A stretch of 64,000 bases of DNA from assembly GCF_055900595.2 (NCBI RefSeq), contig NZ_CM148325.1. One strand, written 5' to 3'. Every line of letters starts with the position of its first letter. Positions within the stretch are counted from its first letter, which is position 1. Positions 1 to 64,000 of this stretch are shown one piece after another. Both the position numbers and the translations under genes were made by a program. The notes under the pieces are model-generated. The model had not been told where the DNA came from, ran no database searches, and saw nothing but the letters and a program-made list of their open reading frames with translations.

Positions 1-1381
1 GCCAGTAATCCACCGTTGGCAGATAACCACTACCGTAGTAAATCGGACTGGGTCCGGTGGCGTATGGTGTAAGAATGCTCCCCAGACCAATGGCCGCGCC
101 AACCATCAGGCAGAACACGGGAAGCGGGATTTCCGGCATCGCCAGCGCGGCGGCAATCATCATCGGCGCGAGAGCGGAGGTATACGCCGTGGCGCTGGCA
201 AAGAAGTAGCGTAGCAGATAAAACACCACAATCAACGCCACCATCACCATCGTTGGCGAATAACCGCTTAAGCTGCCTGCTAACAGTTTGCCAAACCAGC
301 TAATAAAACCGGTGTTGTTGAGTCCGGTAGCGAGGGTGATAAGCGAGGCCAGCCAGAAGAAAACGTTCCACGCCGCTTTATTACTGACAATATCGTCCCA
401 GCAGATAATGCGCAGAAGCAGCATCAGTGCCACCACGCTGTAACCGACCATCGCGGCATCGATATAATCACCGCCGAAAATCCACAGCACCAGTGCGCCT
501 ACCATCAGCCCCAGCATCCGTTTTTCACGAGAACAGAGCGGGCCCATTGCCTGCAGTTCCGTCTCTGCCCAGCGCGGCACCTGATCGCCAGACTTCAGTA
601 CCGGCGGGTACAGCACGTAAGCCAGCCAGGGAACCAGCAGAACCAGTAAAATGCTGAGCGGCAACATCCCGAGGAACCAGTCGCCCCAGCTCAGCGTGGC
701 GTGAGATGCGCTTTTCATCAGGCCAATTAACAGCAAATTTGGAGCCATCGCCGTCAGGAAAATGGCGCTGGTCACGCAGTCGGCAATAATCCCCATCCAC
801 ATGATGTACGAGCCAATGCTGCGCGAACTGCTGTCGTTTGGTTGTGATTGATAGAGTGGTGGCAGGTTACGGATGATGGGATAGATAATCCCCGCACCGC
901 GCGCCGAGTTGGACGGTGTTACAGGTGCCAGGATCAGCTCGGAGAACATTACCGCATAGCCGAGAAACAGCGTACGATGCCCCATCTTTTTCACCAGAAT
1001 CAGCGCGATACGTCGCCCCAGCCCGGTTTTTTCATAGCCTGTGCCAAACATAAAGGCGGCGAAAATCAGCCAGATAACCGAATTAGAAAAACCAGAAACC
1101 GCCCAGGAGAGGGATTTGGCGGTGAACTTAAAACCTGGCTGGGCGAGCTGCTCCGGGCTAAACAGCAGCCACGGCGAGAGAATGGCGATAATGGAGATAC
1201 CCACCATCGCCACCACGGCACCCGGCACGGGTTCGAGGATCAGTCCAACGATCACGCCAGTAAAAACGGCAAAGTAGAGCCAGGTATGACTCTCCAGCCC
1301 TGCGGGAACCGGAATTAGAGCAATAATGGCGATGACCGCCAGCGGCGCAAGGTATCGCCACCATTCAGTGGAAGGTTTCAT
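1..1381 (-). CDS. ttdT: L-tartrate/succinate antiporter TtdT, partial (N-terminus at 1381, C-terminus beyond window start)
   Basis: Minus-strand translation from ATG at 1381 (MKPSTEWWRYLAPLAVIAII...) is a polytopic membrane protein; open to the window edge; position next to ttdB/ttdA. Not in ORF track because it is truncated. Confidence 0.8.
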   Translation of the reverse strand, partial: MKPSTEWWRYLAPLAVIAIIALIPVPAGLESHTWLYFAVFTGVIVGLILEPVPGAVVAMVGISIIAILSPWLLFSPEQLAQPGFKFTAKSLSWAVSGFSNSVIWLIFAAFMFGTGYEKTGLGRRIALILVKKMGHRTLFLGYAVMFSELILAPVTPSNSARGAGIIYPIIRNLPPLYQSQPNDSSSRSIGSYIMWMGIIADCVTSAIFLTAMAPNLLLIGLMKSASHATLSWGDWFLGMLPLSILLVLLVPWLAYVLYPPVLKSGDQVPRWAETELQAMGPLCSREKRMLGLMVGALVLWIFGGDYIDAAMVGYSVVALMLLLRIICWDDIVSNKAAWNVFFWLASLITLATGLNNTGFISWFGKLLAGSLSGYSPTMVMVALIVVFYLLRYFFASATAYTSALAPMMIAAALAMPEIPLPVFCLMVGAAIGLGSILTPYATGPSPIYYGSGYLPTVDYW

Positions 1382-1430
1382 CGTGTTATGCCTGCGAAAA
1401 AGGAGAGGGGGGTGAGCCTCTCCGGGAGGG

Positions 1431-2036
1431 TTATTTGATGTAGTGGACGTGCTCGCAAATCTCTTCCACGATGGGATCGCGGCGTTCGGCGAACAGCTTT
1501 TTGTTTTCGGCTATCAGGTTGTTGCCGTGGGTATCAATAGAGACAATCAGCGGACCGAACTCTTTGACCCGGCAGACCCACAGCGACTCCGGCATCCCGA
1601 GTTCTGTCCAGTGCACCTCTTCAATCTCTTCCACCTGGGTTGCCGCCAGTACTGCGCAGCCTGCCGGGAAAATCACATGCAGCGCCTTGAATTTCTGGCA
1701 GCCTTCTTCGGTCAGCGGCCCCATTCCGCCTTTGCCGACCACCAGTTTCACGCCGGTCTGTTCGATAAATTCACGTTCAAAACTTTCCATACGCATACTG
1801 GTTGTCGGGCCGACGGATACCATCTCCCATTTGTCGCCGTTTTTGCGCACGATGGGGCCAGCGTGGAAAATCGCTTTGCCGTTGAGATCGTAAGGGATCG
1901 GACGTTTGAGTTCGATCAAGCGACGGTGACAAACGTCACGGCAGGTTACCAGCGTACCGGTCAGGTAGATCACATCGCCGACGCGAATATCTTGCAGATC
2001 TTCAGCTTTGATCGGGGTTGTCAGGATCTTTTTCAT
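1431..2036 (-). CDS. ttdB: L(+)-tartrate dehydratase beta subunit
   Basis: 201-aa ORF; 4-bp overlap with upstream ttdA; fumarate-hydratase class I C-terminal-like sequence. Confidence 0.88.
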
Positions 2037-2944
2037 AACGCGCTCCGGGTGTGAGACAGATTTTCAAAGGTGAGATCGGCATGAACCAGCAGTGTGCCGC
2101 GACGATGCGCCCAGCAGCCGGTAGAAACAGCAACGCCGATGGTTGACGGATGGCGGGCGGCAGATTCGATATGTACGCCCATCACTGAACTGTTGCCAGT
2201 CAGCCCCTGTGGACCAATCCCCAGACGGTTGAGTCCTTCTTCCAGGCGTAGTTCCAGCTCTGCCGCTTTTGGATTGGGATGGCGGCTGCCAATTGGGCGC
2301 AAAATGGCTTTACGTGAGAGCACAGCGGCGGTTTCCACCGAGGTGGCGATGCCCACGCCTACCAGTACCGGTGGACAGGCGTTTACGGCGAGGGTGGAGA
2401 TATTTTCGAAGACGAATTTCACTACGCCTTCGTAGCCTTCCGACGGCATTAACACTTTCGAACGACCAGGCAACGTGCAGCCGCCGCCTGCCATGTAAAC
2501 TTCGATTTCCGCATCGTCACCGTCGGGGACGATATCCCAGGTGACCCACGGTACGCCGCTGCCGGTATTTTTGCCGGTGTTCACTTCGTCAAAAATTTCT
2601 ACCGCATTGTGACGCAGTGGCGCTTTGACGGTTGCCTCTTCCACGGCTTGCTTAAGAATGCTTTGCAGCTCGCCAAGCAGTGGGAAACGGGAACCGACCT
2701 TAACAAAAAACATGATTTCGCCGGTGTCCTGACAGGCAGGACGATTCAGGTCGATTGCTTTTTGCATGTTGTCGAACATCGTGTGGTAGATGATTTTCCC
2801 CATCGACGACGTTTCGGCATCCTTTAGCTGTTTTAGTTTGTCCACCACGTCATCGGGCATTCGGGTAGAAATCATGGCGGTAAAGTTAGCGACAATCTCC
2901 GTCAACTTATTCACTGCCTGTTGCTTATTACTTTCGCTCATCAT
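2033..2944 (-). CDS. ttdA: L(+)-tartrate dehydratase alpha subunit
   Basis: 303-aa ORF; divergent from LysR regulator ttdR; Fe-S hydrolyase alpha-like sequence. Confidence 0.88.
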
Positions 2945-3150
2945 GGCAACTCCAGTTTATGTATTTGTCTGGAAAAATTCACCGCCACAAACTACCACTA
3001 AAAATGTGGTTTTATATTTTTTGCCGCCGTGAATATGTAATTCACAGTTCGTGAATCAACGCGAAAATAAGAATGAATATTGCGCCAGAGCAGGGAATGG
3101 CAATGTTTTGCGAAATACACTGCGCTTATCATAACTGCGGATAATTAACG

Positions 3151-4083: not shown

Positions 4084-4095
4084 ACTCGCGAAAAA

Positions 4096-4713
4096 TCACT
4101 CAGGATCCTTTTCGCGCTTTCTTTTGAATTTCGTCCAGATTTTTGTCTCCTGACGACGCCACAGACGCTGGATGTTGTCATGATGGCGCAGCAGGATCAG
4201 GCATGAGAGCATCGAAACCGGGAAGGTGAATTGTGGCTTAAACCACCAGACGTAAAATGGAGCAATCAGTGCGCTGACAATCGCTCCCAGCGACGAGTAT
4301 CCGCTCAATAGCACGGTCAGTAACCAGGTTCCCGCCATTACTCCGGTGAGATCCCAGCCAATTGGTGCGATGGCACCAAAAGCGGTAGCAACGCCTTTTC
4401 CTCCTTTAAAACCGAAGAAAACGGGCCAGATGTGTCCAAGGCAGGCGGCGATGGCAATTAAGCCTAGCCAGAAGGGGCTGACACCTAATTCATACGCGCC
4501 CCAGACGGGCAACATTCCTTTCAGAACGTCGAAAATCAGTACTGCTACGGCTGCTCCCTTGCCACCGATACGTAACACATTGGTTGCGCCAGGATTACCG
4601 GAGCCGCTGGTTCGCGGATCGGGCAGCCCACACAAGCGGCAAACCAGAATGGCACTGGAAATGGAGCCGCAGAGGTACGCGATGAGGATCATTCCAGGCG
4701 CGATTGCACTCAT
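4096..4713 (-). CDS. plsY: glycerol-3-phosphate acyltransferase PlsY
   Basis: 205-aa polytopic membrane ORF matching PlsY (YgiH). Confidence 0.88.
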
Positions 4714-4817
4714 AAGCTGTTCCGTTTTGAAAATTCGTGTTCAACGATGAATCTGTGGATAATACGCACATTTCGCCGGAAGTGGTATCCGGTTAGCCAA
4801 AAAGCAGGCAGGACGTG

Positions 4818-6098: not shown

Positions 6099-6110
6099 TT
6101 GAGGAATAGT

Positions 6111-6142
6111 GTCGGATATGACGCTTGTGCGTCTTATCCGAC
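6111..6142. repeat. REP-like imperfect palindrome between convergent uppP and cca
   Basis: gtcggatatgacgc...gcgtcttatccgac inverted repeat (one mismatch), followed by ctggccgg. Confidence 0.45.
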
Positions 6143-6178
6143 CTGGCCGGTGTTTGCAATAAATTGAAATTCAAGTGC

Positions 6179-7417
6179 TTAATCAGGCTTTGGACAACGT
6201 TGTTCCTTCCAGCTGGCTACCGCCGCAATCCGCCGTCGGGTCAGCTCTTCGCGAATCTCCACACCTTTAAATCCCGCTTCAACGACGGCTTTTGTCGGCA
6301 CTGACTGTGCCACTTCCCAGGCTTCGCGCAACCAGCGGCCTTGCGGGTAGTCCGCTGATTCAAAACCGGTTCTGCCGCGCACATCAGCCTCGCTGGTCAG
6401 CGCCAGTTGCTCGACACGCTGCGGTTTACGCCAGGCGTCGATGGAATCAAATAGTTTGACGATGGTTTTTGGGTTCAGCATTGGGAAGGTGTGGATGAGA
6501 TCGTGAAACTCAGCCACCAGTCTGGCTAAATCGCGAATTTCATTTGGCACGCGCAGACGCTGGCATAGTTGTTCCACTAACTTCACACCCACCGGGCCAT
6601 GACCATGATGACGCGGCCAAAGTTCTGGCGGCGTCAGTCCTTTACCGAGATCGTGGCATAGCGTTGCGAAACGGACATCGACCTGCGGACTTAGCATCGC
6701 CGCCATTGAGAGCGTCATTAAGGTGTGAATACCGGTGTCGATTTCCGGATGCCACTTGGCAGGGGCCGGAACGCCAAACAGGGCGTCAATTTCCGGGAAT
6801 AAAACGCGCAGTGCGCCGCAATCGCGCAGTACCTGGAAGAACACCTGGGGATTGCGGGTAGTGAGGGCGCTTTCCGTCTCTTTCCACACCCGTTCAGGCG
6901 TCAGGTGTTCCAGTTCACCCGCGTGGGTCATCTCGCGCATCAGCGCCAGAGTTTCATCGGCAATACGAAAACCGAGGTGGGCATAACGCGCAGCAAAACG
7001 CGCCACGCGCAGTACGCGTAACGGATCTTCGCCAAAAGCGGGGGAAACATGGCGCAACAGACGATTTTGCAGATCGCCCAGACCGTTGTACGGGTCGATA
7101 ATCTCGCCGTTATCGTCCTGGGCCAGCGCATTAATGGTCAGATCGCGCCGCTTAAGATCATCTTCCAGCGTGACATCCGGTGCGGCATAGCAGGTAAAAC
7201 CGGTGTAACCGGAACCGGATTTCCGTTCGGTACGTGCCAGCGCATACTCTTCATGCGTTTGCGGATGCAGAAAAACAGGAAAATCGCGGCCTACCTGCTG
7301 GTAGCCCGCGTCGAGCATCTCCTGTGGCGTACTACCGACTACCACCCAATCTCTGTCTTTGACCGGTAGCCCTAACAATGCATCCCGAACAGCACCACCG
7401 ACCAGATAAATCTTCAC
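6179..7417 (-). CDS. cca: tRNA nucleotidyltransferase (CCA-adding enzyme) with HD phosphohydrolase domain
   Basis: 412-aa [31 protein letters not shown]...; HD motif (LCHDLGKG). Confidence 0.9.
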
Positions 7418-8101: not shown

Positions 8102-8443
8102 CAGGCTGTCGTTATTGTCATGGAAAGTGGAACGATAGTAGTGGCATCAGTGTCGCTACGCAAAGCATTCGACATCAATCGGAATCCTCTGTGTCAGGTC
8201 TTGCCACTGCTTCAAACTTTTACGCCCGTCAAATTGCCCGTTGCATGGCAATTTGGCGCAAAATACTATCTACTGACAAAAAAGATCGCATTAAGTTCGC
8301 CGTTCATCGTCACTTATGTGACATAACCGATAAGTAAAGGCCTTGACATCCTCCCCCACCTTCGCGCAAAGCGACTCAGGAGGGGGATTCCCTTGTCAGG
8401 GTAGCAATACGTTGCCGCATTGCCCGGTTCCTCGCTCGACGGC

Positions 8444-9649
8444 TTACGCCGCCTTACGGGCGCGTCCTTTACGGACTGACGGCAATATTTGTCCTGCCGC
8501 CATGACTTCAAAACCTGCTGTTAATATATTGCGAGCGCCGTTTACATCGGCGTTTGCCGTATAGCCGCACGCGGTACAGATAAAGCTCGCCTGCGTCCTG
8601 CGGTTATTTTTCGATGTATGCCCACAACATGCGCATTTCTGACTGGTGTACGCCGGATTAATCGCCAGCACATCACCGCCGCGCCATGCCTGCTTATATT
8701 CGAGCTGGCGGCGCATTTCTGCCCAGCCCTGATCCAGTATCGCCCGGTTAAGACCTGATTTTGCCGCGACGTTGCGCCCCGGCTGGTCTACCGTACCCGC
8801 TGCTGATTTTGACATGTTCGAAACCTTTAAATCCTCAATGACTATCATCGCGTGGTTTTTGCTGATCGTCGTCGTGGTTTTATGAAGGTAATCGCGGCGG
8901 ATGTTTGCGATATGAGAGTGGAAACGGGAAATCTTCGCTTTCTGCTTTTTCCAGTTGGCGGAGAATTTAACCATCCGGGCCAGACGGCGCTGTAAGCGAG
9001 CCAGCTTATCCTGATTTTTTTTAAAGCTGTTTACCGGTTCAAAGACCGTGCCGTCTGAAAGTGTTGCCAGCTTTGTTATACCTGCATCCAGGCCTATTGC
9101 GCTGGTCGATGCGTGAATCGGATCGGTAACAGCTAATTCGACCTGAAAAGACACATACCAGTGTCCGGCATGCTGGCTGATGGTGCAATTTTTAATGACG
9201 CCTTCAATCTTCCGGGACTGACGAAATTTAACCCAGCCCAGTCCTGACGAGAGTTTCACACGGCCATAATCCAGCCCACAATATTTGCTGAAATTGACGA
9301 ACCGGATAGAGTCGCAGCCTTTGGTTTTCTTTTTGAAAACGGGCTTTTCAGCCGTCAGGGATTTATCAAAACAGCGATCCCATGCGCTCCGCAGGTCTTT
9401 CAGTTTCTGCTGGAGGTTGTCAGTGTAACCCTCAGCAAGAAAGGCCAGCTCAGGGAGTTTTTTCCAGCCCGTAAGTCGTTTATTCAGGTCGAAAGCTGAC
9501 GGAATTTTTCCGCCCGCGTCATGAATGCTCAGTGTTTCATTCAGTGCATAGTTCCAGACAAAGCGAGCGCAACCGCACAACTGACGCAACCTTTGCGCCT
9601 GCTGGTCAGTGGGGTAGAGCCTGTATTTATATGCTTTCTGGATTAACAT
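8444..9649 (-). CDS. tnpB: TnpB (OrfB) RuvC-like putative RNA-guided endonuclease of IS200/IS605 family
   Basis: 401-aa ORF; RuvC-I (AIGLDAGI), RuvC-II (IVIEDLKV), zinc finger CACCGH...CTACGY, RuvC-III (NADVNGARNI) all present. Confidence 0.9.
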   Translation of the reverse strand: MLIQKAYKYRLYPTDQQAQRLRQLCGCARFVWNYALNETLSIHDAGGKIPSAFDLNKRLTGWKKLPELAFLAEGYTDNLQQKLKDLRSAWDRCFDKSLTAEKPVFKKKTKGCDSIRFVNFSKYCGLDYGRVKLSSGLGWVKFRQSRKIEGVIKNCTISQHAGHWYVSFQVELAVTDPIHASTSAIGLDAGITKLATLSDGTVFEPVNSFKKNQDKLARLQRRLARMVKFSANWKKQKAKISRFHSHIANIRRDYLHKTTTTISKNHAMIVIEDLKVSNMSKSAAGTVDQPGRNVAAKSGLNRAILDQGWAEMRRQLEYKQAWRGGDVLAINPAYTSQKCACCGHTSKNNRRTQASFICTACGYTANADVNGARNILTAGFEVMAAGQILPSVRKGRARKAA

Positions 9650-9661
9650 TTTGCATTCAGT

Positions 9662-10114
9662 ATGTGGTTATTTAGAATGTACAATATATCCACATTTTTT
9701 TGGGAGGATCAATACGTGTGCGAAATCAATCGTTCACGCTATTCAGCTTACCTGTTGCATGTTCACGTTGTTTTTATGACAAAATACCGCCGTCCAGTTT
9801 TTGGTGAATTGCATCATGCAAACATGCGTCAGTATGTAGCGGAGGTATGCGCGGACTTTGGCGCCGAGTTAAAGGAATGTGACGGCGAGGCAGATCATGT
9901 TCACATGCTGATTGAATACCCACCGTTGGTGCAACTCACAAAGCTGGTAAACAGCCTTAAGTCCGTTACCAGTAGGCGGCTGCGGAATGATTTTATTGAT
10001 TTGCGCGCCGCGTATTCAAAGCCCGTACTCTGGTCACGCTCTTATTTCATCGGTTCATGTGGTGGAGCACCGCTGGAAGTTGTGAAAAAGTATATTCAGA
10101 ATCAGCGTGGCTGA
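9662..10114 (+). CDS. tnpA: IS200/IS605-family Y1 (HUH) transposase TnpA
   Basis: 150-aa ORF; HVHML (HuH) motif and C-terminal catalytic Tyr region (SYFIGSCGG); true start may be internal to the track ORF. Confidence 0.82.
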   Translation: MWLFRMYNISTFFWEDQYVCEINRSRYSAYLLHVHVVFMTKYRRPVFGELHHANMRQYVAEVCADFGAELKECDGEADHVHMLIEYPPLVQLTKLVNSLKSVTSRRLRNDFIDLRAAYSKPVLWSRSYFIGSCGGAPLEVVKKYIQNQRG

Positions 10115-10184
10115 TAAACTGCGGGCTTAACAGCCCAAATTCCCCTCCCGCCTACGTTGGGGGGGAGTACCCAGTGGAGGAAGG

Positions 10185-11486
10185 ATGGCTCAGGAAATCG
10201 AATTAAAGTTTATTGTTAATCACAGTGCCGTTGAGGCGTTGCGTGACCATCTCAATACGCTGGGCGGCGAGCACCATGACCCCGTGCAGTTGCTGAATAT
10301 TTACTACGAAACGCTGGATAACTGGCTGCGTGGGCACGACATGGGCTTACGTATCCGTGGCGAAAACGGTCGCTATGAGATGACCATGAAAGTTGCAGGA
10401 AGAGTGACAGGCGGCTTACACCAGCGCCCGGAATATAACGTGGCTTTGAGCGAACCGACGCTCGACCTGGCGCAGTTACCGACGGAAGTCTGGCCGAACG
10501 GCGAATTGCCTGCCGATCTCGCTTCCCGCGTACAACCGCTGTTCAGCACCGATTTTTATCGCGAAAAGTGGCTGGTAGAGGTCGATGGTAGCCAAATTGA
10601 AATCGCTCTCGACCAGGGGGAAGTGAAAGCGGGGGAATTTGCTGAGCCTATCTGCGAGCTTGAACTGGAACTGCTTAGCGGCGACACGCGCGCCGTGCTG
10701 AAACTGGCGAACCAACTGGTATCGCAAACCGGATTACGTCAGGGCAGCCTGAGCAAAGCCGCGCGCGGCTATCATCTGGCGCAGGGCAATCCCGCGCGTG
10801 AAATCAAACCGACCACCATTTTGCATGTTGCGGCAAAAGCCGATGTGGAACAGGGGCTGGAAGCGGCGCTCGAGCTGGCGTTAGCGCAATGGCAGTATCA
10901 TGAAGAACTGTGGGTCCGCGGCAACGATGCGGCGAAAGAGCAAGTGCTGGCTGCCATTGGCCTGGTCCGTCATACGCTGATGCTGTTCGGTGGCATTGTG
11001 CCGCGTAAAGCGAGCACTCACTTACGTGACCTGCTGACTCAATGCGAAGCGACCATCGCATCTGCGGTGTCTGCCGTAACGGCGGTCTACTCTACCGAAA
11101 CGGCGATGGCGAAGCTGGCGTTGACCGAATGGCTGGTAAGCAAAGCCTGGCAGCCGTTTTTAGATGCCAAAGCGCAGGGCAAAATCAGCGATTCTTTCAA
11201 ACGCTTTGCCGATATCCATCTTTCCCGCCATGCCGCTGAACTGAAAAGCGTTTTCTGCCAGCCATTAGGCGATCGCTACCGTGACCAATTGCCGCGCCTG
11301 ACGCGTGACATTGACTCAATATTGTTGCTGGCGGGTTACTACGATCCTCTCGTCGCGCAAGCCTGGCTGGAGAACTGGCAGGGACTGCGTCATGCCATTG
11401 CGACCGGGCAACGCATTGAAATTGAACATTTCCGTAATGAGGCAAACAATCAGGAACCGTTCTGGTTGCACAGCGGAAAACGTTAA
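10185..11486 (+). CDS. ygiF: inorganic triphosphatase (CYTH + CHAD domains) YgiF
   Basis: 433-aa [14 protein letters not shown]... (CYTH EXEXK motif); immediately upstream of glnE. Confidence 0.88.
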
Positions 11487-15830: not shown

Positions 15831-15909
15831 CCGGAAAGCGGTTCACAGATCTCGCTTCGAACCAGGCAGGCCTATTGACGCTGTTGTTTTTTCAACCTAA
15901 AGTAAAGGA

Positions 15910-16058
15910 ACAAGGGTAAGGGAGGATTTCTCCCCCCTCTGAATTGGTTGTTAATAAGCCTGGAAACTTACTAGTAACAACACAATCAGTATGATGACGA
16001 ACTTCATCATAACCCTTTCCTTCTATAAGGCCCCTTCTTCGGGAGGGGCTTTCCCGTT
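15910..16058 (+). ncRNA. sibD: Sib-family antisense antitoxin RNA (predicted), fully overlapping ibs copy 1
   Basis: Plus-strand promoter TTGACG(15875-80)-17nt-TAAAGT(15898-903); hairpin gcccct-tcttcggg-aggggc at 16029-16049 followed by T-rich tract. Ends approximate. Confidence 0.5.
15951..16010 (-). CDS. ibsD: Ibs-family type I toxin, 19 aa (MMKFVIILIVLLLVSFQAY)
   Basis: Minus-strand ATGATG at 16010, stop at 15951-15953; hydrophobic peptide matching the Ibs toxin pattern; symbol by position (ibsD/ibsE assignment uncertain). Confidence 0.7.
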   Translation of the reverse strand: MMKFVIILIVLLLVSFQAY

Positions 16059-16286
16059 TCAGCCCCTTGCTGACTCCCCGATTGTTGATGAGCGCCAGAC
16101 CCCGCGCAATGCTTTCCCAGAGGCAGTTTTGCCTTCCCCGAGCAGTCACGCAAAACGCTGCAACAGCCTGATCATTTGCAGTTTTTTGTGGAACACAGAT
16201 ATAAAAAATCCCCGGTTTTTTGGGCCAGGGATATGTGTTAATGAAACCTTCTTGACGCTGATTTTTTTTCAACCTAAAGTAAAGGA

Positions 16287-16434
16287 ACAAGGGTAAGGGA
16301 GGATTTCTCCCCCCTCTGAATGGCCGTTAATAAGCGTGGAAACTTATCAGTAACAGCACAATCAGTATGATGACGAACTTCATCATAACCCTTTCCTTAT
16401 GTAAGGCCCCTTCCTCGGGAGGGGCTTTCCCGTT
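16287..16434 (+). ncRNA. sibE: Sib-family antisense antitoxin RNA (predicted), copy 2
   Basis: Promoter TTGACG(16252-57)-17nt-TAAAGT(16275-80); terminator hairpin 16405-16425 + T tract. Ends approximate. Confidence 0.5.
16327..16386 (-). CDS. ibsE: Ibs-family type I toxin, 19 aa (MMKFVIILIVLLLISFHAY)
   Basis: Second repeat copy; minus-strand ATGATG at 16386, stop 16327-16329. Confidence 0.7.
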   Translation of the reverse strand: MMKFVIILIVLLLISFHAY

Positions 16435-16624
16435 TCAGCCCCTTGCTGACTCCCCGATTGTTGATGAGCGCCAGACCCCGCGCAATGCTTTCTCTTATGC
16501 AGTTTTCTCTTCCCCGAGTTGGCTCGCAAAACGCTGTAACAACCTGATCATTTGTACTTTTTAGCGGAACGCAGATATAAAAAATCCCCGGCTTTTTGGG
16601 CCAGGGATGTTCATAGTTGAAAAT

Positions 16625-19454: not shown

Positions 19455-19461
19455 TGGTGCT

Positions 19462-19761
19462 TTATTCTGCTTTATCAACCGGCGGGATAGCTGGAGGAGA
19501 TTGAAGTTCTGCTACCGGATTATTGCGCGCTTCCAGTTCGCTGATGCGTTGTTCCAGTAACGCCAGTTTTTCACGAGTCCGTAACAGGACTTGCGTCTGA
19601 ACGTCGAATTCTTCGCGGCTTACCAGATCGAGACGCGTCAACTGCGCTTGTAGGGTTTGGCGGATTTTTTTCTCCACATCTTCCCCGAACTCCCTGATTC
19701 CTTTAGGCATTGATTCGTGAACCTGGCGAGCGATTTGCTCAATTTTTTTCGGGTCAATCAT
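19462..19761 (-). CDS. ubiK: ubiquinone biosynthesis accessory factor UbiK (YqiC)
   Basis: [35 protein letters not shown]...; coiled-coil BMFP-like; start chosen internal to the 119-aa track ORF. Confidence 0.8.
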
Positions 19762-20788: not shown

Positions 20789-20820
20789 AAACCGCTGCTT
20801 AATTTACCGCGTTAATCAAT

Positions 20821-21528
20821 AAATATCCTCCGGCATAGCCGGAGGTTTTTCAAATGCGCCTGTAAGGCTCTGTTACCAGCCGCGCCCTAACAGGCGCATA
20901 CGATCTGACATTTGCATTCAACTTCGTTACTTACGGCCCGTAAACGGGCTGCCCGGATATGGAATCGATAACTGCTCCCCCATTTTATCCTCTTCAAGCT
21001 GGTGCTTTATGTAGTCCTGTATCTTCGCCGTGTTCTTACCCACCGTATCGACATAGTACCCTCGGCACCAGAACTCCCTGTTTCTGTATTTGAATTTCAA
21101 ATCCCCAAACTGCTCGTAAAGCATCAGACTGCTTTTCCCTTTCAGATATCCCATAAAGCCGGATACGCTCATTTTGGGTGGGATTTCCACAAGCATATGG
21201 ATATGATCTGCGCAGCACTCTGCTTCCAGAATCCGTACGCTTTTCCACTCACACAGCTTTCTCAAAATACTGCCTATCGCCCTACGCTTCTCTCCGTAAA
21301 ACGCCAGTCTTCGGTATTTCGGCGCAAAAACTATGTGATATTTACAGTTCCAGCGGGTGTGCGCTAAGCTCTTTTCGTCCCCCATTGGGACCCCCTTTTG
21401 ATTTCTTGTTTGACACTTGCAGTTGCCAGACCGCAAGGTGTTTTAACAAATCAAAAGGGGTTTTAATAACTGGCTCAAAGCTGAAAGCTTTCCGGAACCC
21501 CCAGCCTAGCTGGGGGTTTTCTGTGCAC
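20821..21528 (-). mobile_element. IS200 insertion sequence (~708 bp); ends inferred (+/-20 bp)
   Basis: 152-aa IS200 TnpA; left end (high coordinate) inferred from hairpins at 21495-21517 and 21391-21460, which match the recalled IS200 leader positions (nt 12-34 and 69-138). Confidence 0.65.
20927..21385 (-). CDS. tnpA: IS200 transposase TnpA (Y1/HUH)
   Basis: MGDEKSLAHTRWNCKYHIVFAPKYRR...HIHMLVEIPP...; 152 aa from second in-frame ATG. Confidence 0.9.
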   Translation of the reverse strand: MGDEKSLAHTRWNCKYHIVFAPKYRRLAFYGEKRRAIGSILRKLCEWKSVRILEAECCADHIHMLVEIPPKMSVSGFMGYLKGKSSLMLYEQFGDLKFKYRNREFWCRGYYVDTVGKNTAKIQDYIKHQLEEDKMGEQLSIPYPGSPFTGRK

Positions 21529-21530
21529 AA

Positions 21531-21565
21531 GAAACCGAAGCTATTACTGGCTTCGGTTTTTATTT
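21531..21565 (+). terminator. Rho-independent terminator, probably the native ribB terminator displaced by IS200
   Basis: gaaaccgaagc-tattactg-gcttcggttt followed by TTTATTTT, immediately outside the inferred IS200 left end. Confidence 0.5.
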
Positions 21566-21761
21566 TGCTCTTGTTATGCAAGATGTTAATTCCTCTTCTC
21601 TTTCTATGAGAAAATTTCATTAATATCAGGCATTCTTTTCCATTATGATCAAAATCATATAATTGTTCCGTTATTATGCGACCATATGAATATATCCGAA
21701 AAAGGATATGTGAATTTTATGCGCTAAATGTTTAGTATTGTTAAATATTAAGGGTAAAAGG

Positions 21762-36562: not shown

Positions 36563-36899
36563 TGAAGAATCTTTACCGGAGTGTGAGTCAAATCACTCGC
36601 TATCAGTTTAAGTTAACGATGCCACAGGCGTAATGTTGTCCGCTCAGACTCTGACGGCACAGGATTTTGTCCTTCCACACAGAAACCGCCATTGGCGGTT
36701 TTCCGCTGCATAATCCTCAGGATTATGTCTATAGCAAAGAGTTGTATATAAAGGCACATTGGTGCCTTTATCGCCGTCGGAGCACGTCCGGCGGCGCTAT
36801 TCACGCTGATCTCCTGTGACTCGACGCGGCAGATAATGTAGTATCTCCGGCAATATTGCCCCTTTGAAGGCTGGCGAATAAGTTGAGGAATCAGAATTA

Positions 36900-43944: not shown

Positions 43945-43982
43945 GTGAAATGTGCCCGGCAGCAATGATACTGCCGGGAAAT

Positions 43983-44213
43983 TTATAACCTTGGTTTATA
44001 AGGACTGTTACGAACGTCTAAGCGGTAATGCGCTCTTGCTGTTTCGTCTTTAACTTGCTGAATTTCCGGACGCAGGGCGTCAATATCCTGTTGCAGTTGA
44101 TTAATTTTGTTATTCAATGCCTGAATATCATGTTCCAGGTGTTCAATTTTGGCATTGCTGGTACAGCCAACAAGATACAGCGCCAGCGGAATGGATAAGA
44201 TAAGTTTGTTCAT
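43983..44213 (-). CDS. Lpp-like coiled-coil lipoprotein (paralog of the adjacent gene)
   Basis: MNKLILSIPLALYLVGC lipobox then heptad-repeat segment (IEHLEHDIQALNNKINQLQQDIDALRPEIQQ); start chosen internal to the track ORF. Confidence 0.6.
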   Translation of the reverse strand: MNKLILSIPLALYLVGCTSNAKIEHLEHDIQALNNKINQLQQDIDALRPEIQQVKDETARAHYRLDVRNSPYKPRL

Positions 44214-44230
44214 TATGAATTCCAGAACCG

Positions 44231-52296: not shown

Positions 52297-52304
52297 AGAC
52301 AATT

Positions 52305-52402
52305 GCCTGATGCGCTACGCTTATCAGGCCTACAAAATATATTGCAACATATTGAATTTGCATGACATGTAGGCCGGATAAGGCGTTTAGACCGCATCCG
52401 GC
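52305..52402. repeat. BIME: two REP elements in inverted orientation
   Basis: gcctgatgcgctacgcttatcaggcctac ... gtaggccggataaggcgtttagaccgcatccggc. Confidence 0.6.
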
Positions 52403-52423
52403 AAGAGTTAAATGCATAATGAT

Positions 52424-55104: not shown

Positions 55105-55791
55105 GACCTCTCCTTTCCACCATTCAATTTCGAAACAATGTTTCCAGTTTAGCGATTTACCAGGGGGGATCCCGTAGCATCGCTCACAGTGTGACGAAAA
55201 ACTGGGCAAAAACACGTGCTTATGCTTTGCTTAAAAAAACACCAATTAAGGAGTGCAATGATGCCGCGTCTGACCGCTAAAGATTTCCCACAAGAGTTGC
55301 TGGATTACTACGACTATTACGCTCACGGGAAAATTTCGAAACGTGAGTTCCTCAACCTTGCGGCGAAGTATGCGGTGGGCGGGATGACGGCATTAGCGTT
55401 GTTTGATTTGCTCAAGCCAAATTATGCGCTGGCGACTCAGGTAGAGTTTACCGACCCGGAAATTGTTGCTGAGTACATCACGTATTCTTCGCCAAATGGT
55501 CACGGCGAGGTACGGGGTTATCTGGTGAAGCCCGCAAAGATGAGCGGCAAAACGCCAGCCGTGGTGGTGGTGCATGAGAATCGTGGACTGAATCCGTATA
55601 TCGAAGATGTGGCACGGCGAGTAGCGAAGGCGGGGTATATCGCCCTGGCACCTGACGGCTTAAGTTCCGTTGGAGGTTATCCGGGTAATGATGATAAAGG
55701 TCGTGAGCTGCAACAGCAGGTTGATCCAACCAAACTGATGAATGATTTCTTTGCCGCAATTGAGTTTATGCAACGCTATCCGCAAGCGACA

Positions 55792-55800
55792 GGCAAAGTG
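55792..55800. repeat. 9-bp target site duplication (GGCAAAGTG), left copy
   Basis: Identical 9-mer directly flanks both IS10 ends. Confidence 0.85.
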
Positions 55801-55813
55801 CTGAGAGATCCCC

Positions 55814-57022
55814 TCATAATTTCCCCAAAACGTAACCATGTGTGAATAGATTTTGAGTAAGCAGGGTTGCAGCCACGAGTGAGTCTTCCCTTGTTATTGT
55901 GTAGCCAGAATGCCGCAAAACTTCCATGCCTAAGCGAACTGTTGAGAGTACGTTTCGATTTCTGACTGTGTTAGCCTGGAAGTGCTTGTCCCAACCTTGT
56001 TTCTGAGCATGAACGCCCGCAAGCCAACATGTTAGTTGAAGCATCAGGGCGATTAGCAGCATGATATCAAAACGCTCTGAGCTGCTCGTTCGGCTATGGC
56101 GTAGGCCTAGTCCGTAGGCAGGACTTTTCAAGTCTCGGAAGGTTTCTTCAATCTGCATTCGCTTCGAATAGATATTAACAAGTTGTTTGGGTGTTCGAAT
56201 TTCAACAGGTAAGTTAGTTGCTAGAATCCATGGCTCCTTTGCCGACGCTGAGTAGATTTTAGGTGACGGGTGGTGACAATGAGTCCGTGTCGAGCGCTGA
56301 TTTTTTCGGCCTTTAGAGCGAGATTTATACAATAGAATTTGGCATGAGATTGGATTGCTTTTAGTCAGCCTCTTATAGCCTAAAGTCTTTGAGTGACTAG
56401 ATGACATATCATGTAAGTTGCTGATAGGTTTCCAGTTTTCCGCTCCTAGGTCTGCATATTGTACTTTTCCTCTTACTCGACTTAACCAGTACCAACCCAG
56501 CTTCTCAACGGATTTATACCATGGCACTTTAAAGCCAGCATCACTGACAATGAGCGGTGTGGTGTTACTCGGTAGAATGCTCGCAAGGTCGGCTAGAAAT
56601 TGGTCATGAGCTTTCTTTGAACATTGCTCTGAAAGCGGGAACGCTTTCTCATAAAGAGTAACAGAACGACCGTGTAGTGCGACTGAAGCTCGCAATACCA
56701 TAAGCCGTTTTTGCTCACGGATATCAGACCAGTCAACAAGTACAATGGGCATCGTATTGCCCGAACAGATAAAGCTAGCATGCCAACGGTATACAGCGAG
56801 TCGCTCTTTGTGGAGGTGACGATTACCTAACAATCGGTCGATTCGTTTGATGTTATGTTTTGTTCTCGCTTTGGTTGGCAGGTTACGGCCAAGTTCGGTA
56901 AGAGTGAGAGTTTTACAGTCAAGTAAGGCGTGGCAAGCCAACGTTAAGCTGTTGAGTCGTTTTAAGTGTAATTCGGGGCAGAATTGGTAAAGAGAGTCGT
57001 GTAAAATATCGAGTTCGCACAT
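55814..57022 (-). CDS. tnp: IS10 transposase (IS4 family, DDE)
   Basis: 402-aa ORF MCELDILHDSLYQFCPELHLKRLNSLTLACHALLDCKTLTLTELGRNLPTKARTKHNIKRIDRLLGN... Confidence 0.95.
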   Translation of the reverse strand: MCELDILHDSLYQFCPELHLKRLNSLTLACHALLDCKTLTLTELGRNLPTKARTKHNIKRIDRLLGNRHLHKERLAVYRWHASFICSGNTMPIVLVDWSDIREQKRLMVLRASVALHGRSVTLYEKAFPLSEQCSKKAHDQFLADLASILPSNTTPLIVSDAGFKVPWYKSVEKLGWYWLSRVRGKVQYADLGAENWKPISNLHDMSSSHSKTLGYKRLTKSNPISCQILLYKSRSKGRKNQRSTRTHCHHPSPKIYSASAKEPWILATNLPVEIRTPKQLVNIYSKRMQIEETFRDLKSPAYGLGLRHSRTSSSERFDIMLLIALMLQLTCWLAGVHAQKQGWDKHFQANTVRNRNVLSTVRLGMEVLRHSGYTITREDSLVAATLLTQNLFTHGYVLGKL

Positions 57023-57083
57023 TTTGTTGTCTGATTATTGATTTTTGGCGAAACCATTTGATCATATGACAAGATGTGTATCC
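57015..57083 (+). ncRNA. IS10 RNA-OUT antisense RNA (predicted from IS10 coordinates)
   Basis: Corresponds to IS10 bp 115-47; sequence tcgcacattttgttgtctgattattgatttttggcgaaaccatttgatcatatgacaagatgtgtatcc is antisense to the transposase start; GATC (dam) site in the pIN -10 region. Confidence 0.5.
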
Positions 57084-57129
57084 ACCTTAACTTAATGATT
57101 TTTACCAAAATCATTAGGGGATTCATCAG

Positions 57130-57138
57130 GGCAAAGTG
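57130..57138. repeat. 9-bp target site duplication (GGCAAAGTG), right copy
   Basis: Identical to 55792-55800. Confidence 0.85.
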
Positions 57139-57604
57139 GGTATTACCGGATTTTGCTATGGCGGTGGTGTATCGAACGCGGCGGCTGTCGCGTATCCGGA
57201 ACTGGCCTGCGCGGTGCCGTTTTATGGTCGTCAGGCACCCACTGCCGATGTGGCGAAGATTGAAGCGCCTTTACTGCTCCACTACGCGGAACTGGATACC
57301 CGAATCAACGAGGGCTGGCCCGCTTACGAGGCGGCGTTGAAAGCCAATAATAAGGTCTATGAGGCGTATATCTATCCGGGGGTTAATCACGGATTCCATA
57401 ATGATTCCACGCCCCGTTATGACAAATCTGCCGCCGATCTTGCCTGGCAAAGGACGCTGAAATGGTTCGATAAATATCTCTCCTGATAGGTTTATCTCTT
57501 ACGGGATTACGTCTTAAACAAGCATGAAAAAATAGCGTGCGCAAAAGTCGTTCTTTGCCTAAAATATCGCTATATATGACAATATATAGCGAATGAGGTG
57601 AACG

Positions 57605-59199: not shown

Positions 59200-59201
59200 C
59201 C

Positions 59202-60188: not shown

Positions 60189-61356
60189 TCCACAACCGCT
60201 GGGCGGCAAAATCATCAGTAAACCGGTCATGATTTTTGGACCGTTAATCGTCATCTGTATGCTCCTGATTGTGAAGCGTCTGGTGTTCGGTCTGGGCTCT
60301 GTCTCTGACCTGAACGGCGGCTTCCCGTGGGGCGTGTGGATCGCGTTTGACCTGTTGATCGGCACCGGCTTCGCCTGTGGCGGCTGGGCGCTGGCGTGGG
60401 CGGTATACGTCTTTAACCGTGGGCAATACCATCCGCTGGTACGTCCGGCACTGTTGGCAAGTCTGTTTGGTTACTCACTGGGTGGCTTGTCGATCACTAT
60501 CGACGTGGGGCGCTACTGGAACCTGCCGTACTTCTACATTCCGGGTCACTTCAACGTGAACTCGGTACTGTTCGAGACGGCGGTCTGTATGACCATCTAC
60601 ATCGGCGTGATGGCACTGGAGTTTGCTCCGGCACTGTTTGAACGTCTGGGCTGGAAAGTGTCGCTACAGCGTCTGAACAAGGTGATGTTCTTCATCATCG
60701 CGCTCGGCGCGCTGCTGCCAACTATGCACCAGTCTTCAATGGGGTCGCTGATGATCTCGGCGGGCTACAAGGTGCATCCGCTGTGGCAAAGCTATGAAAT
60801 GTTGCCGCTGTTCTCGCTGTTGACGGCGTTCATCATGGGCTTCTCGATTGTCATCTTTGAAGGTTCGCTGGTGCAGGCGGGTCTGCGTGGCAACGGTCCG
60901 GATGAAAAGAGCCTGTTCGTCAAACTGACCAACACCATCAGTGTGTTGCTGGCGATTTTCATCGTGTTGCGCTTTGGCGAGCTGATCTATCGCGACAAGC
61001 TGTCGTTAGCGTTTGCCGGTGACTTCTACTCCGTGATGTTCTGGATTGAAGTCCTGCTGATGCTCTTCCCGCTGGTTGTTCTGCGTGTGGCGAAGCTGCG
61101 TAATGATTCCCGCATGCTGTTCCTGTCAGCATTGAGCGCACTGTTAGGTTGTGCAACCTGGCGTCTGACCTATTCGCTGGTGGCATTCAACCCGGGCGGC
61201 GGTTACGCCTACTTCCCGACCTGGGAAGAACTGTTGATTTCTATTGGTTTTGTGGCTATTGAGATTTGCGCTTACATCGTACTCATTCGTCTACTGCCGA
61301 TACTTCCTCCTTTAAAACAAAACGATCATAATCGTCATGAGGCGAGCAAAGCATGA
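60178..61356 (+). CDS. hybB: hydrogenase 2 integral membrane subunit (NrfD/PsrC-like)
   Basis: 392-aa polytopic membrane ORF; 11-bp overlap with hybA. Confidence 0.92.
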
Positions 61357-63056
61357 GCCAGAGAATTACTATTGATCCGGTAACCCGAATTGAAGGGCAT
61401 TTACGCATCGATTGCGAAATCGAAAATGGCGTCGTTTCGAAAGCATGGGCTTCCGGTACCATGTGGCGCGGCATGGAAGAGATCGTGAAAAACCGCGATC
61501 CGCGCGATGCATGGATGATTGTGCAACGTATCTGTGGCGTATGTACTACCACTCACGCGCTGTCTTCTGTCCGTGTGGCAGAGAGCGCGCTGAATATCGA
61601 CGTTCCGGTTAACGCGCAATACATCCGTAACATCATTCTGGCTGCGCACACCACGCATGACCATATCGTTCATTTCTATCAGCTTTCAGCGCTGGACTGG
61701 GTGGACATCACTTCTGCACTGCAAGCTGACCCAACCAAAGCCTCGGAAATGCTGAAAGGCGTTTCGACCTGGCATCTGAACAGCCCGGAAGAGTTCACTA
61801 AAGTTCAGAACAAGATCAAAGATCTGGTTGCCAGCGGTCAGTTGGGTATTTTCGCTAATGGCTACTGGGGGCACCCGGCAATGAAACTGCCGCCGGAAGT
61901 GAACCTGATTGCGGTAGCGCACTACCTGCAGGCGCTGGAGTGCCAGCGTGACGCTAACCGCGTCGTGGCGCTGCTGGGCGGTAAAACGCCGCACATTCAG
62001 AACCTGGCGGTAGGTGGTGTCGCGAACCCGATCAACCTCGACGGTCTGGGTGTGCTGAACCTTGAGCGCCTGATGTACATCAAGTCTTTCATCGACAAAC
62101 TGAGCGACTTTGTTGAGCAGGTTTACAAGGTTGATACCGCGGTTATCGCCGCGTTCTATCCGGAATGGCTGACGCGCGGCAAAGGTGCGGTGAACTACCT
62201 GAGCGTGCCGGAATTCCCGACCGACAGCAAAAACGGCAGCTTCCTGTTCCCGGGCGGCTACATTGAGAATGCGGATCTGTCCTCGTATCGCCCGATCACT
62301 TCCCACTCCGATGAATACCTGATCAAAGGCATTCAGGAAAGCGCGAAGCACTCCTGGTATAAAGACGAAGCGCCGCAGGCACCGTGGGAAGGTACCACCA
62401 TTCCGGCTTATGATGGTTGGTCTGACGACGGGAAATATTCCTGGGTGAAATCACCGACTTTCTACGGCAAAACGGTAGAAGTGGGTCCGCTGGCTAATAT
62501 GCTGGTGAAACTGGCGGCAGGTCGCGAATCTACCCAGAATAAACTGAATGAAATCGTTGCGATTTATCAGAAACTGACTGGCAACACGCTGGAAGTGGCG
62601 CAGCTGCACTCCACGCTGGGCCGTATTATTGGTCGTACCGTTCACTGCTGCGAATTGCAGGATATCCTGCAAAACCAATACAGTGCACTGATCACCAATA
62701 TCGGCAAAGGCGATCACACCACCTTCGTGAAACCGAACATTCCGGCAACGGGTGAGTTCAAAGGTGTTGGCTTCCTCGAAGCGCCGCGCGGTATGCTCTC
62801 TCACTGGATGGTTATTAAAGACGGTATCATCAGCAACTACCAGGCGGTTGTTCCATCAACCTGGAACTCTGGCCCGCGTAACTTCAATGATGACGTCGGT
62901 CCTTACGAGCAGTCGCTGGTGGGTACGCCGGTTGCCGATCCGAATAAACCGCTGGAAGTGGTGCGTACCATTCACTCCTTCGACCCGTGCATGGCCTGTG
63001 CGGTACACGTAGTGGATGCCGACGGCAACGAAGTGGTTTCAGTGAAGGTTCTGTAA
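61353..63056 (+). CDS. hybC: [NiFe] hydrogenase 2 large subunit
   Basis: 567-aa ORF; N-terminal RICGVCTTTH and C-terminal DPCMACAVH Ni-binding motifs. Confidence 0.95.
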   Translation: MSQRITIDPVTRIEGHLRIDCEIENGVVSKAWASGTMWRGMEEIVKNRDPRDAWMIVQRICGVCTTTHALSSVRVAESALNIDVPVNAQYIRNIILAAHTTHDHIVHFYQLSALDWVDITSALQADPTKASEMLKGVSTWHLNSPEEFTKVQNKIKDLVASGQLGIFANGYWGHPAMKLPPEVNLIAVAHYLQALECQRDANRVVALLGGKTPHIQNLAVGGVANPINLDGLGVLNLERLMYIKSFIDKLSDFVEQVYKVDTAVIAAFYPEWLTRGKGAVNYLSVPEFPTDSKNGSFLFPGGYIENADLSSYRPITSHSDEYLIKGIQESAKHSWYKDEAPQAPWEGTTIPAYDGWSDDGKYSWVKSPTFYGKTVEVGPLANMLVKLAAGRESTQNKLNEIVAIYQKLTGNTLEVAQLHSTLGRIIGRTVHCCELQDILQNQYSALITNIGKGDHTTFVKPNIPATGEFKGVGFLEAPRGMLSHWMVIKDGIISNYQAVVPSTWNSGPRNFNDDVGPYEQSLVGTPVADPNKPLEVVRTIHSFDPCMACAVHVVDADGNEVVSVKVL

Positions 63057-63550
63057 TGCGTATTTTAGTCTTAGGGGTTGGCAATATTTTGCTGACCGAT
63101 GAAGCCATCGGTGTGCGGATTGTCGAAGCGTTAGAGCAACGATATATTCTGCCAGATTATGTTGAGATCCTCGATGGCGGCACGGCGGGAATGGAGCTGC
63201 TTGGCGACATGGCAAATCGTGATCATCTGATCATTGCGGATGCCATTGTGTCGAAGAAGAGCGCGCCGGGAACGATGATGATCCTGCGGGATGAAGAAGT
63301 TCCGGCGTTGTTTACCAACAAAATCTCTCCGCATCAGCTTGGCCTGGCCGACGTATTGTCGGCCCTGCGCTTCACCGGTGAGTTTCCGAAAAAGCTGACC
63401 CTGGTCGGCGTGATCCCGGAATCGCTGGAGCCACACATCGGCTTAACGCCGACGGTTGAAGCAATGATTGAACCTGCGCTTGAGCATGTTCTGGCTGCGC
63501 TGCGCGAATCAGGCGTGGAAGCCATCCCACGGGAGGCGATTCATGACTGA
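63056..63550 (+). CDS. hybD: hydrogenase 2 maturation endopeptidase
   Basis: 164-aa product from MRILVLGVGNILLTDEAIGVRIVE...; start overlaps hybC stop. Confidence 0.9.
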   Translation: MRILVLGVGNILLTDEAIGVRIVEALEQRYILPDYVEILDGGTAGMELLGDMANRDHLIIADAIVSKKSAPGTMMILRDEEVPALFTNKISPHQLGLADVLSALRFTGEFPKKLTLVGVIPESLEPHIGLTPTVEAMIEPALEHVLAALRESGVEAIPREAIHD

Positions 63551-64000
63551 AGAGATAGCAGGTTTCCAGACCTCCCCGAAGGCGCAAGTACAGGCAGCGT
63601 TTGAAGAAATTGCCCGGCGTTCGATGCACGATCTCTCTTTTCTGCATCCTTCAATGCCGGTGTATGTTTCTGACTTTACGCTGTTCGAAGGTCAGTGGAC
63701 GGGGTGTGTGATCACCCCGTGGATGCTGAGTGCGGTTATCTTCCCCGGCCCGGATCAACTCTGGCCACTGCGCAAAGTGAGTGAAAAAATTGGTCTGCAA
63801 CTGCCGTATGGCACCATGACCTTTACCGTTGGCGAACTGGACGGTGTTTCGCAATACCTCTCCTGCTCGCTGATGTCGCCGCTTTCGCACAGCATGTCGA
63901 TTGAAGAGGGCCAACGCCTGACGGATGACTGCGCACGAATGATCCTTTCGCTGCCAGTCACGAATCCGGATGTACCACACGCAGGGCGTCGCGCCCTGCT
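63543..64000 (+). CDS. hybE: hydrogenase 2-specific chaperone HybE, partial (runs off window end)
   Basis: ATG 63543 (MTEEIAGFQTSPKAQVQAAFEEIARR...), 8-bp overlap with hybD; open to the window edge. Confidence 0.8.
   Translation, partial: MTEEIAGFQTSPKAQVQAAFEEIARRSMHDLSFLHPSMPVYVSDFTLFEGQWTGCVITPWMLSAVIFPGPDQLWPLRKVSEKIGLQLPYGTMTFTVGELDGVSQYLSCSLMSPLSHSMSIEEGQRLTDDCARMILSLPVTNPDVPHAGRRAL

Follow-up and report, generated by a model that had tools for sequence, protein, structure and literature searches.

For transposons of the IS605 family, homing of TnpB into vacated sites and retention of the element have been shown experimentally (10.1101/2023.03.14.532601; PMC10690162). For IS200 of Salmonella, an insertion sequence (IS) of 707 bp, the roles of the left-end terminator and of art200 and the 5' untranslated region (UTR) of tnpA have been described (PMC4513863), and a recent preprint reports that terminator-like sequences are overrepresented immediately upstream of IS elements, with the strongest enrichment for IS200/IS605 (10.1101/2025.07.22.666184). 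We analysed a stretch of 64,000 nucleotides of Escherichia coli DNA (RefSeq assembly GCF_055900595.2, contig NZ_CM148325.1; the whole stretch is called the window here), which holds three such elements: ISEc41, whose TnpB is homologous to those of ISDra2 (Deinococcus radiodurans) and IS608 (Helicobacter pylori), a copy of IS200 and a copy of IS10, the right module of Tn10. The window very probably comes from the core chromosome (ttd to hyb) of an E. coli that belongs to cryptic clade I and resembles sequence type (ST) 485, in which three separate transposition events of very different ages have taken place.

The limits of the elements were set by aligning the window to its closest complete relative, Z0117EC0005, and to K-12 MG1655. 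Open reading frames (ORFs) were read in six frames, protein domains were identified by Pfam and RNAs by Rfam, and 5,426 complete E. coli genomes served as the reference set for all site and copy counts. The window is collinear with Z0117EC0005 at 99.96-99.98% identity from position 1 to ~62.1 kb, with the exception of two inserts, one of 711 bp after 20817/20823 and one of 1329 bp at 55801-57129 with a 9-bp overlap. The comparison with K-12 revealed a third insert of 1842 bp at 8343-10184 and extra DNA in K-12 at two places. The three IS elements that a previous sequence-only reading of the window had located were thus found at those places, their limits were refined to the base, and the Pfam and Rfam signatures agree with them. 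All three are of named, well-understood kinds, and none is a new kind of element. The earlier description as three unrelated families does not hold: the transposases of ISEc41 and IS200 are homologous (32% identity, E 6e-18, both PF01797) and both of the Y1 (HUH) type, so that the window has only two families, IS200/IS605 with two elements and IS4 with one.

The assignment to clade I and ST485 is based on near-identity to typed genomes and on a distance that is roughly the same for the other E. coli compared; the window includes neither the loci for multilocus sequence typing nor the Clermont markers. In 24 kb of core sequence, eight of the 5,426 genomes are ~100% identical to the window (E200086, E400634, E500002, E600003 and 100117 among them), ~10 match at 98.3-98.8% and all others at 96.6% or less. 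Five of the eight nearest genomes belong to eatA-positive Global Enteric Multicenter Study isolates from five countries, typed as cryptic clade I, ST485, OND:H45 (PMC13064198). The lineage is rare and deep-branching, and its earlier designation as non-K-12 is correct yet understated. Phylogroup B2, which was first assumed from the absence of mqsRA and yqiGHI and from Nissle 1917 among the ISEc41 matches, was rejected because no genome reaches more than 96.6% over the 24-kb core apart from a group of ~18, in which there is no named B2 strain, and because the nearest genomes are published as clade I ST485.

The features of ISEc41 are as follows.
8343-10184, minus strand (orientation of tnpB): ISEc41 (IS200/IS605 family), 1842 bp, limits from the K-12 empty site
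9662-10114, plus strand: ISEc41 tnpA, 150 aa, Y1 (HUH) single-strand transposase (Pfam PF01797 Y1_Tnp, E 1.5e-39)
8444-9649, minus strand: ISEc41 tnpB, 401 aa, TnpB/InsQ type (Pfam HTH_OrfB_IS605, OrfB_IS605 and Cas12f1-like_TNB)
8343-8520, minus strand: candidate omega-RNA scaffold from the tnpB 3' end to the right end of the element (fold -83.2 kcal/mol, z = -5.5 with 200 shuffles; position by analogy)

ISEc41 is placed between ygiM and the ATG of ygiF. Its right end lies at 8343 (...GGATGTCAA on the minus strand) and its left end at 10184, directly adjoining the ygiF ATG. K-12 and the clade-I-like genome RMDEC465 share the empty site GTAAAGGCC/ATGGCTCAG, and ISEc41 sits exactly at the slash. 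The element has neither terminal inverted repeats nor a target duplication, and no base is repeated at the junctions GGCC/TTGACA... and ...GGAAGG/ATG. A subterminal hairpin is clear at the right end (CCCCCTCC...GGTGGGGGAGG, z = -2.3) and weakly supported at the left end (z = -1.3). The TnpA match spans 120 of the 121 positions of the PF01797 profile, and tnpA, divergent from tnpB, is oriented like ygiF. The copy in Z0117EC0005, 99.9% identical to that of the window, carries the RefSeq name 'ISEc41 family'; a literature search on ISEc41 returned incidental mentions only. In CFT073, Nissle 1917 and ATCC 25922 (RefSeq annotation) the element occupies the same ygiM/ygiF site with the same divergent tnpA and tnpB and the same absence of inverted repeats and duplication. 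The window copy is 99.5% identical to these B2 copies over 1842 bp, from which it differs by nine substitutions, one 1-bp indel and its clade I background, and structurally not at all.

The comparison with ISDra2 and IS608 showed both shared and divergent traits. ISEc41 TnpB aligns over its full length to ISDra2 TnpB (8H1J/8EXA, E 7e-47), and the residues aligned to RuvC D191, E278 and D361 are D, E and D; the protein therefore appears to be an intact RNA-guided endonuclease of this type. The right end of ISEc41 finishes TCAA, which we take to be the terminal tetranucleotide of the IS608 right end as well. A structured RNA is predicted from the fold at the tnpB 3' end beside the right end, as in ISDra2 and IS608, and 8343-8520 is where an omega-RNA scaffold would be expected by analogy with the ISDra2/IS605 TnpB systems (10.1101/2023.03.14.532601); an Rfam search of this region matched no family. 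The putative guide would be the flank from position 8342 downward (GGCCTTTACTTATCGG... on the minus strand), and both K-12 and RMDEC465 have the would-be target CTGAGCCAT/GGCCTTTACTTATCGG in unaltered form. In contrast to ISDra2 and IS608, tnpA and tnpB of ISEc41 are divergent, and the flank at its left end reads ...GAGCCAT instead of TTGAT or TTAC. Since all near-identical ISEc41 copies are found at one insertion site, they yield no target consensus.

The insertion has altered the region upstream of ygiF. At 10170-10187 the AAAGGCC that precedes the ygiF ATG in K-12 is replaced by GGAGGAAGG from the end of ISEc41, and the ygiM-ygiF spacer is pushed 1.8 kb away. Because the native upstream sequence has been replaced and the spacer displaced in this way, transcription of ygiF would have to start within ISEc41 or run through it, and expression of ygiF(-glnE) would depend on the element.

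A search of the reference set showed that ISEc41 is an old, shared allele and not a mark of the strain from which the window comes. Any match to the element was found in 169 genomes and a near-identical one in 156 (148 full-length and ~8 scars); in 146 of the 5,426 genomes it lies with both flanks at the ygiM/ygiF site. The carriers come from several lineages, include CFT073, Nissle 1917, ATCC 25922 and clone D i14, and hold a single copy in every full-length case listed. A near-identical copy on a plasmid was found neither in the E. coli set nor in PLSDB, where the best match reached 75.9%; a plasmid source was considered and rejected, as PLSDB yields only ~76% relatives, mostly on Klebsiella plasmids.

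Individual alignments of clade I and B2 genomes revealed that ISEc41 is ~8-fold less diverged than the sequence around it. Between the window and Nissle 1917 the element differs at 9 of 1841 positions (0.49%), whereas the left flank differs at 149 of 4642 (3.2%) and the right flank at 202 of 4616 (4.4%; Fisher p = 4e-18), and every clade I vs B2 pair gave the same picture (0.43-0.76% in ISEc41 vs 3.1-4.5% in the 4.6-kb flanks; Fisher p 1e-14 to 1e-18). In the flanks, mismatches restart at a distance of 95 bp on the right side of ISEc41 and of 280 bp on its left side, and they are the same as those against K-12, which is without the element. On the left, the compared genomes all agree in the 240-bp spacer, which is for this reason uninformative on tract length. 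Because ISEc41 is far less diverged than its flanks, these figures imply that the occupied allele would have been exchanged horizontally between lineages.

Two further allelic states occur at the ygiM/ygiF site. RMDEC465 provides a clean empty allele within the clade-I-like group. About eight complete genomes (e.g. RM14723 and 82.0311) hold a 63-bp scar consisting of the first 45 bp and the last 18 bp of ISEc41, joined at a short GGGGGA repeat; the scar keeps GGAGGAAGG before the ygiF ATG and was found in a third flank background.

The second element lies downstream of ribB.
20818-21528 or 20820-21530 (2-bp AA ambiguity), minus strand: IS200, 711 bp, limits from the empty site CGCGTTAATCAAGAAACCGAAGC in Z0117EC0005 and K-12 and from five other copies
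20927-21385, minus strand: IS200 tnpA, 152 aa, Y1 transposase (Pfam PF01797, E 7.9e-37)
21395-21518, minus strand: left-end regulatory region of IS200, antisense pair of tnpA 5'UTR and art200 (STnc490) (Rfam RF01405, 146 bits vs gathering score 56)
20827-20851, plus strand: IS200 right-end hairpin CCTCCGGCATAGCCGGAGG followed by TTTTT (terminator-like scan; DNA fold z = -4.0)
21530-21566, plus strand: native ribB terminator hairpin, displaced 711 bp from ribB (terminator-like scan)

Because each junction has an AA, the limits of IS200 are ambiguous by two bases. The same ends (AATAAATATCC...GTGCAC) and the same length of 711 bp are found in five further copies, taken from five genomes, and RefSeq annotates a 459-nt tnpA (152 aa) at the matching position of other IS200 copies. 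The element has the features of the IS200 group, namely a length of ~700 bp, a single tnpA, the left-end terminator hairpin (CCCCCAGC...GCTGGGGG in the DNA fold) and art200/STnc490. It thus resembles IS200 of Salmonella and IS1541 of Yersinia, with which it shares a single Y1 gene, a length of ~710 bp, the left-end hairpin with art200/STnc490 and the lack of a clear duplication; it is 711 bp long vs 707 bp for the Salmonella element (PMC4513863).

IS200 was inserted 29 nt past the ribB stop codon, and its left end adjoins the foot of the ribB terminator hairpin. Read on the minus strand, this terminator is a hairpin with a T-tract that ends exactly at the left end of IS200. The same arrangement recurs in the six IS200 copies examined: each has a hairpin 1-6 nt from its left end (-15.7 to -21.5 kcal/mol in 45 nt), whereas the flank of the other end folds at 0 to -8.7 kcal/mol, and on the tnpA strand each directly follows a hairpin and T-tract, as of an intrinsic terminator. 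This pattern in the six copies indicates that IS200 would target intrinsic terminators. On the ribB strand the right-end hairpin of IS200 itself reads as a putative intrinsic terminator, the first that ribB transcripts would meet, and they probably stop there.

The ribB site is empty of IS200 in all 5,426 complete genomes, while IS200 anywhere is found in 2,642 of them, at a median of two and a maximum of 35 copies per carrier. The eight ST485 genomes hold 15-17 copies each, and a resident copy beside clcB in ST485 relatives is 99.9% identical to that of the window. The other clade-I-like genomes listed showed no IS200 place beyond the ribB flank, and IS200 has therefore expanded in the ST485 clone, in what looks like an event specific to it; the strain of the window holds at least one further copy that is private relative to the complete genomes. 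The usual description of IS200 is that of a nearly dormant element, from which its 15-17 copies in this clone and the additional one in the window both depart.

The third element interrupts yghX.
55801-57129, minus strand: IS10 (IS4 family), 1329 bp, from alignment to the uninterrupted relative (RefSeq label for such copies 'ISVsa5 family')
55792-55800 and 57130-57138, no strand: 9-bp target duplication GGCAAAGTG (from the sequence and the 9-bp overlap against the uninterrupted relative)
55814-57022, minus strand: IS10 transposase, 402 aa (Pfam DDE_Tnp_1 PF01609, E 1.5e-24)
57015-57084, plus strand: RNA-OUT, antisense regulator of the IS10 transposase (Rfam RF00240, 97 bits vs gathering score 41)
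55261-57486, plus strand: yghX (dienelactone-hydrolase family), split by IS10 into an N part (55261-55800) and a C part (57130-57486), from the ORFs of the window

The inside end of IS10 (CTGAGAGATCCCC) lies at 55801 and the outside end (...GGGGATTCATCAG) at 57129, and the terminal inverted repeats are imperfect (CTGAGAGATCCCCTCAT... and CTGATGAATCCCCTAAT...). Together with the DDE_Tnp_1 domain, the 9-bp duplication and RNA-OUT at the outside end they identify a member of the IS4 family, and in its 1329 bp, its DDE transposase and all these traits the copy shows no difference from IS10 of Tn10. A copy in enteroaggregative E. coli 55989 matches it at 100% identity over 1329 bp. The insertion falls at about codon 180 of the 295 of yghX, whose product is intact (295 aa) in Z0117EC0005; in K-12 the gene is a pseudogene. 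The sequence-only reading had placed all three elements in intergenic or accessory positions, which fails for IS10, as it splits a gene that is intact in the closest relative.

None of the 5,426 complete genomes, including the eight ST485 relatives, carries IS10 at this yghX site. IS10 anywhere is present in 1,967 of them (1,173 full-length; median two and maximum 45 copies). The ST485 relatives have at most one extra IS10 place per chromosome, and the 40 best matches listed, each with an identity of at least 99.8%, include no donor copy in these relatives. When the truncated C-terminal fragment of YghX was looked up exactly in read-set assemblies, four informative contigs were returned; the same look-up with the N-terminal fragment fused to the IS10 end, in two choices of start, gave no match. 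Assembly SRR27886137 ends in the same IS10/yghX junction with 0 mismatches in 3,351 bp downstream, and it thus appears to represent the same strain or clone. SRR35371900 belongs to a different lineage (81 mismatches) and has IS10 at the identical 9-bp target, which makes this target a recurrent IS10 hotspot. In SRR30938118, from a third lineage, an end of IS1 lies a few bases from the target, and SRR35641241 has a Tn5 mosaic end in yghX and is an artificial library. This point in yghX is a recurrent insertion target, and GGCAAAGTG fits four of the six specified positions of NGCTNAGCN, which we take to be the IS10 hotspot consensus.

How the three insertions arose can be explained in several ways. 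In the sequence-only reading all of them were marks of the strain or lineage, left by one distinctive recent burst of IS activity. The ribB and yghX sites, occupied in the window and empty in every complete genome, suit such a burst, as does the unusually high IS200 count of the ST485 clone; ISEc41 contradicts it, since it is found at the identical site in 146-148 genomes, B2 strains CFT073, Nissle 1917 and ATCC 25922 included, and is single-copy in every carrier listed, with no sign of recent activity. We consider one common burst improbable. Strain-specificity is thus retained for the IS200 and IS10 sites (0/5,426 each) and lost for ISEc41, and likewise the claim of a distinctive IS load stands for IS200 (15-17 copies in the clone vs a carrier median of two) and falls for the shared, single-copy ISEc41. 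ISEc41 is old and widely shared, IS200 and IS10 are recent insertions, and the ages of the three are very unequal. Still further from our reading, IS10 could have entered yghX in the laboratory, while the material was stored or by a hop out of a host strain. Cloned DNA is well known to pick up IS10 in Tn10-derived hosts, and none of the eight ST485 relatives has it in yghX. Such an artefact is nevertheless highly improbable: natural E. coli often carry IS10 (1,967 of 5,426 genomes), SRR27886137, assembled independently from short reads, stops at this very junction with identical flanks, and in SRR35371900, of another lineage, IS10 occupies the 9-bp target as well, which would be expected of a natural hotspot.

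For ISEc41 itself, a single insertion in the ancestor of clade I and B2 followed by vertical inheritance and many losses, through precise excision or deletion, would account for a site that is base-identical in all carriers, and losses do occur, as witnessed by the 63-bp internal-deletion scar in ~8 genomes and by clean empty alleles inside the clade-I-like group such as that of RMDEC465. Simple vertical descent with losses does not fit the alignments, however, in which an element diverged by 0.43-0.76% lies between flanks diverged by 3.1-4.5% that are as different as those against K-12 and whose mismatches restart within 95 bp (right) and 280 bp (left); we regard it as very improbable. The same figures could be produced by homing, in which an omega-RNA-guided TnpB cuts the empty site of a recipient after DNA transfer and repair copies ISEc41 with very short conversion tracts. 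In favour of this are the single copy at one site only, the absence of a near-identical plasmid copy, the 8-fold lower divergence that ends near the junctions, a TnpB that appears intact, a target (CTGAGCCAT/GGCCTTTACTTATCGG) that is unchanged in K-12 and RMDEC465 and combines the sequence adjoining the left end with the flank matching the putative guide, and experimental precedent in IS605-family elements (10.1101/2023.03.14.532601; PMC10690162). Yet RecA recombination of a short imported fragment gives the same pattern without TnpB, the invariant left spacer makes tract length unmeasurable on that side, and cleavage by and expression of this TnpB are predictions from sequence. Ordinary homologous recombination of a short imported fragment is enough to explain the exchange, and homing is a doubtful, though conceivable, addition to it.

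According to our preferred reading of three separate events, ISEc41 would be an old arrival in the ygiM/ygiF spacer, placed exactly at the ygiF start codon by moving as single-stranded DNA ('peel and paste', with no duplication), and the occupied allele would then have been exchanged between lineages, so as to be present now in about 150 sequenced genomes. TnpB, with a guide matching the empty site, would be expected to cut vacated or empty alleles and so to favour retention. A resident IS200 of the ST485 clone would have made one more, strain-private insertion directly after the ribB terminator hairpin and T-tract, and the terminator-like hairpin at its other end would keep ribB properly terminated. 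IS10 would have been inserted by cut-and-paste with a 9-bp duplication, knocking out the dispensable hydrolase gene yghX. Several points weigh against this reading: the exchange of ISEc41 was deduced from five aligned genomes and BLAST summaries, set against 148 copies; the activity of its TnpB, the omega-RNA and the transposon-associated motif are predicted from homology and position; continued termination of ribB is a consensus-pattern prediction; the IS200 copy counts are those of ST485 relatives, while the genome of the window is seen as 64 kb; and the IS10 site is occupied in draft data (SRR35371900), so that it is private relative to complete genomes only.

Outside the three elements, the window contains the core genes parC, parE, glnE, hldE, tolC, plsC and cca, which had been called intact and indeed lie in uninterrupted ORFs. 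Those of cca (412 aa), hldE (477 aa), parE (630 aa), parC (752 aa) and plsC (245 aa) are exactly as long as in K-12, and the ORFs that contain glnE and tolC measure 1014 and 506 aa from alternative start codons upstream. The reported absence of two K-12 modules was confirmed by alignment to K-12.
19457-19530, no strand: place of ygiL-yqiG::IS2I-yqiH-yqiI (6.6 kb in K-12), module missing, ~75 bp instead
36565-36691, no strand: place of ygiS-mqsA-mqsR (2.6 kb in K-12), module missing, ~127 bp instead

A stretch of ~270 bp beyond K-12 is found after yqhH (43962-44230), which in the annotation of the closest relative encodes a 76-aa 'LPP leucine zipper domain-containing protein'. At 15875-16608 the window holds two tandem Sib/Ibs type I toxin-antitoxin repeats (Rfam SIB_RNA, 143 and 147 bits) that are 91.6% alike and resemble sibD/sibE of K-12. 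Small length differences from K-12 in the cca-bacA spacer (6118-6182) and the yghA-exbD spacer (52304-52403) are probably repeats of the repetitive extragenic palindromic (REP) type. A scan of the window revealed no tRNA genes and therefore no tRNA-linked islands. From ~62130 to 64000 (3' part of hybC onward) the window differs from Z0117EC0005 by ~4% (73 mismatches in 1.87 kb), with just two mismatches between 57.1 and 62.1 kb, and K-12 is nearer to the window than to Z0117EC0005 in this part; this points to a putative boundary of a recombination tract at ~62.1 kb, either in the window or in Z0117EC0005.

As it stands, the presence of three named IS elements in a non-K-12 E. coli matters little, and the population pattern of ISEc41 is the sole lead worth following. 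The junctions of IS200 with the ribB terminator and of IS10 with yghX are strain markers within a globally distributed, eatA-positive clade I ST485 clone, in which IS200, usually called dormant, is active. ISEc41 may, with the same low probability that we give to homing, be a transposition-silent, single-copy natural homing allele that crosses lineages (clade I, B2 and at least one further flank background). If true, this would account for the identity of the insertion point, for the lack of a second site or a plasmid copy and for the 8-fold lower divergence, and it would provide population-genomic evidence of TnpB homing between genomes in nature, beyond retention after excision. With its fixed site, one copy and horizontal exchange, ISEc41 offers a clean natural test case for TnpB biasing the inheritance of a transposon between genomes.

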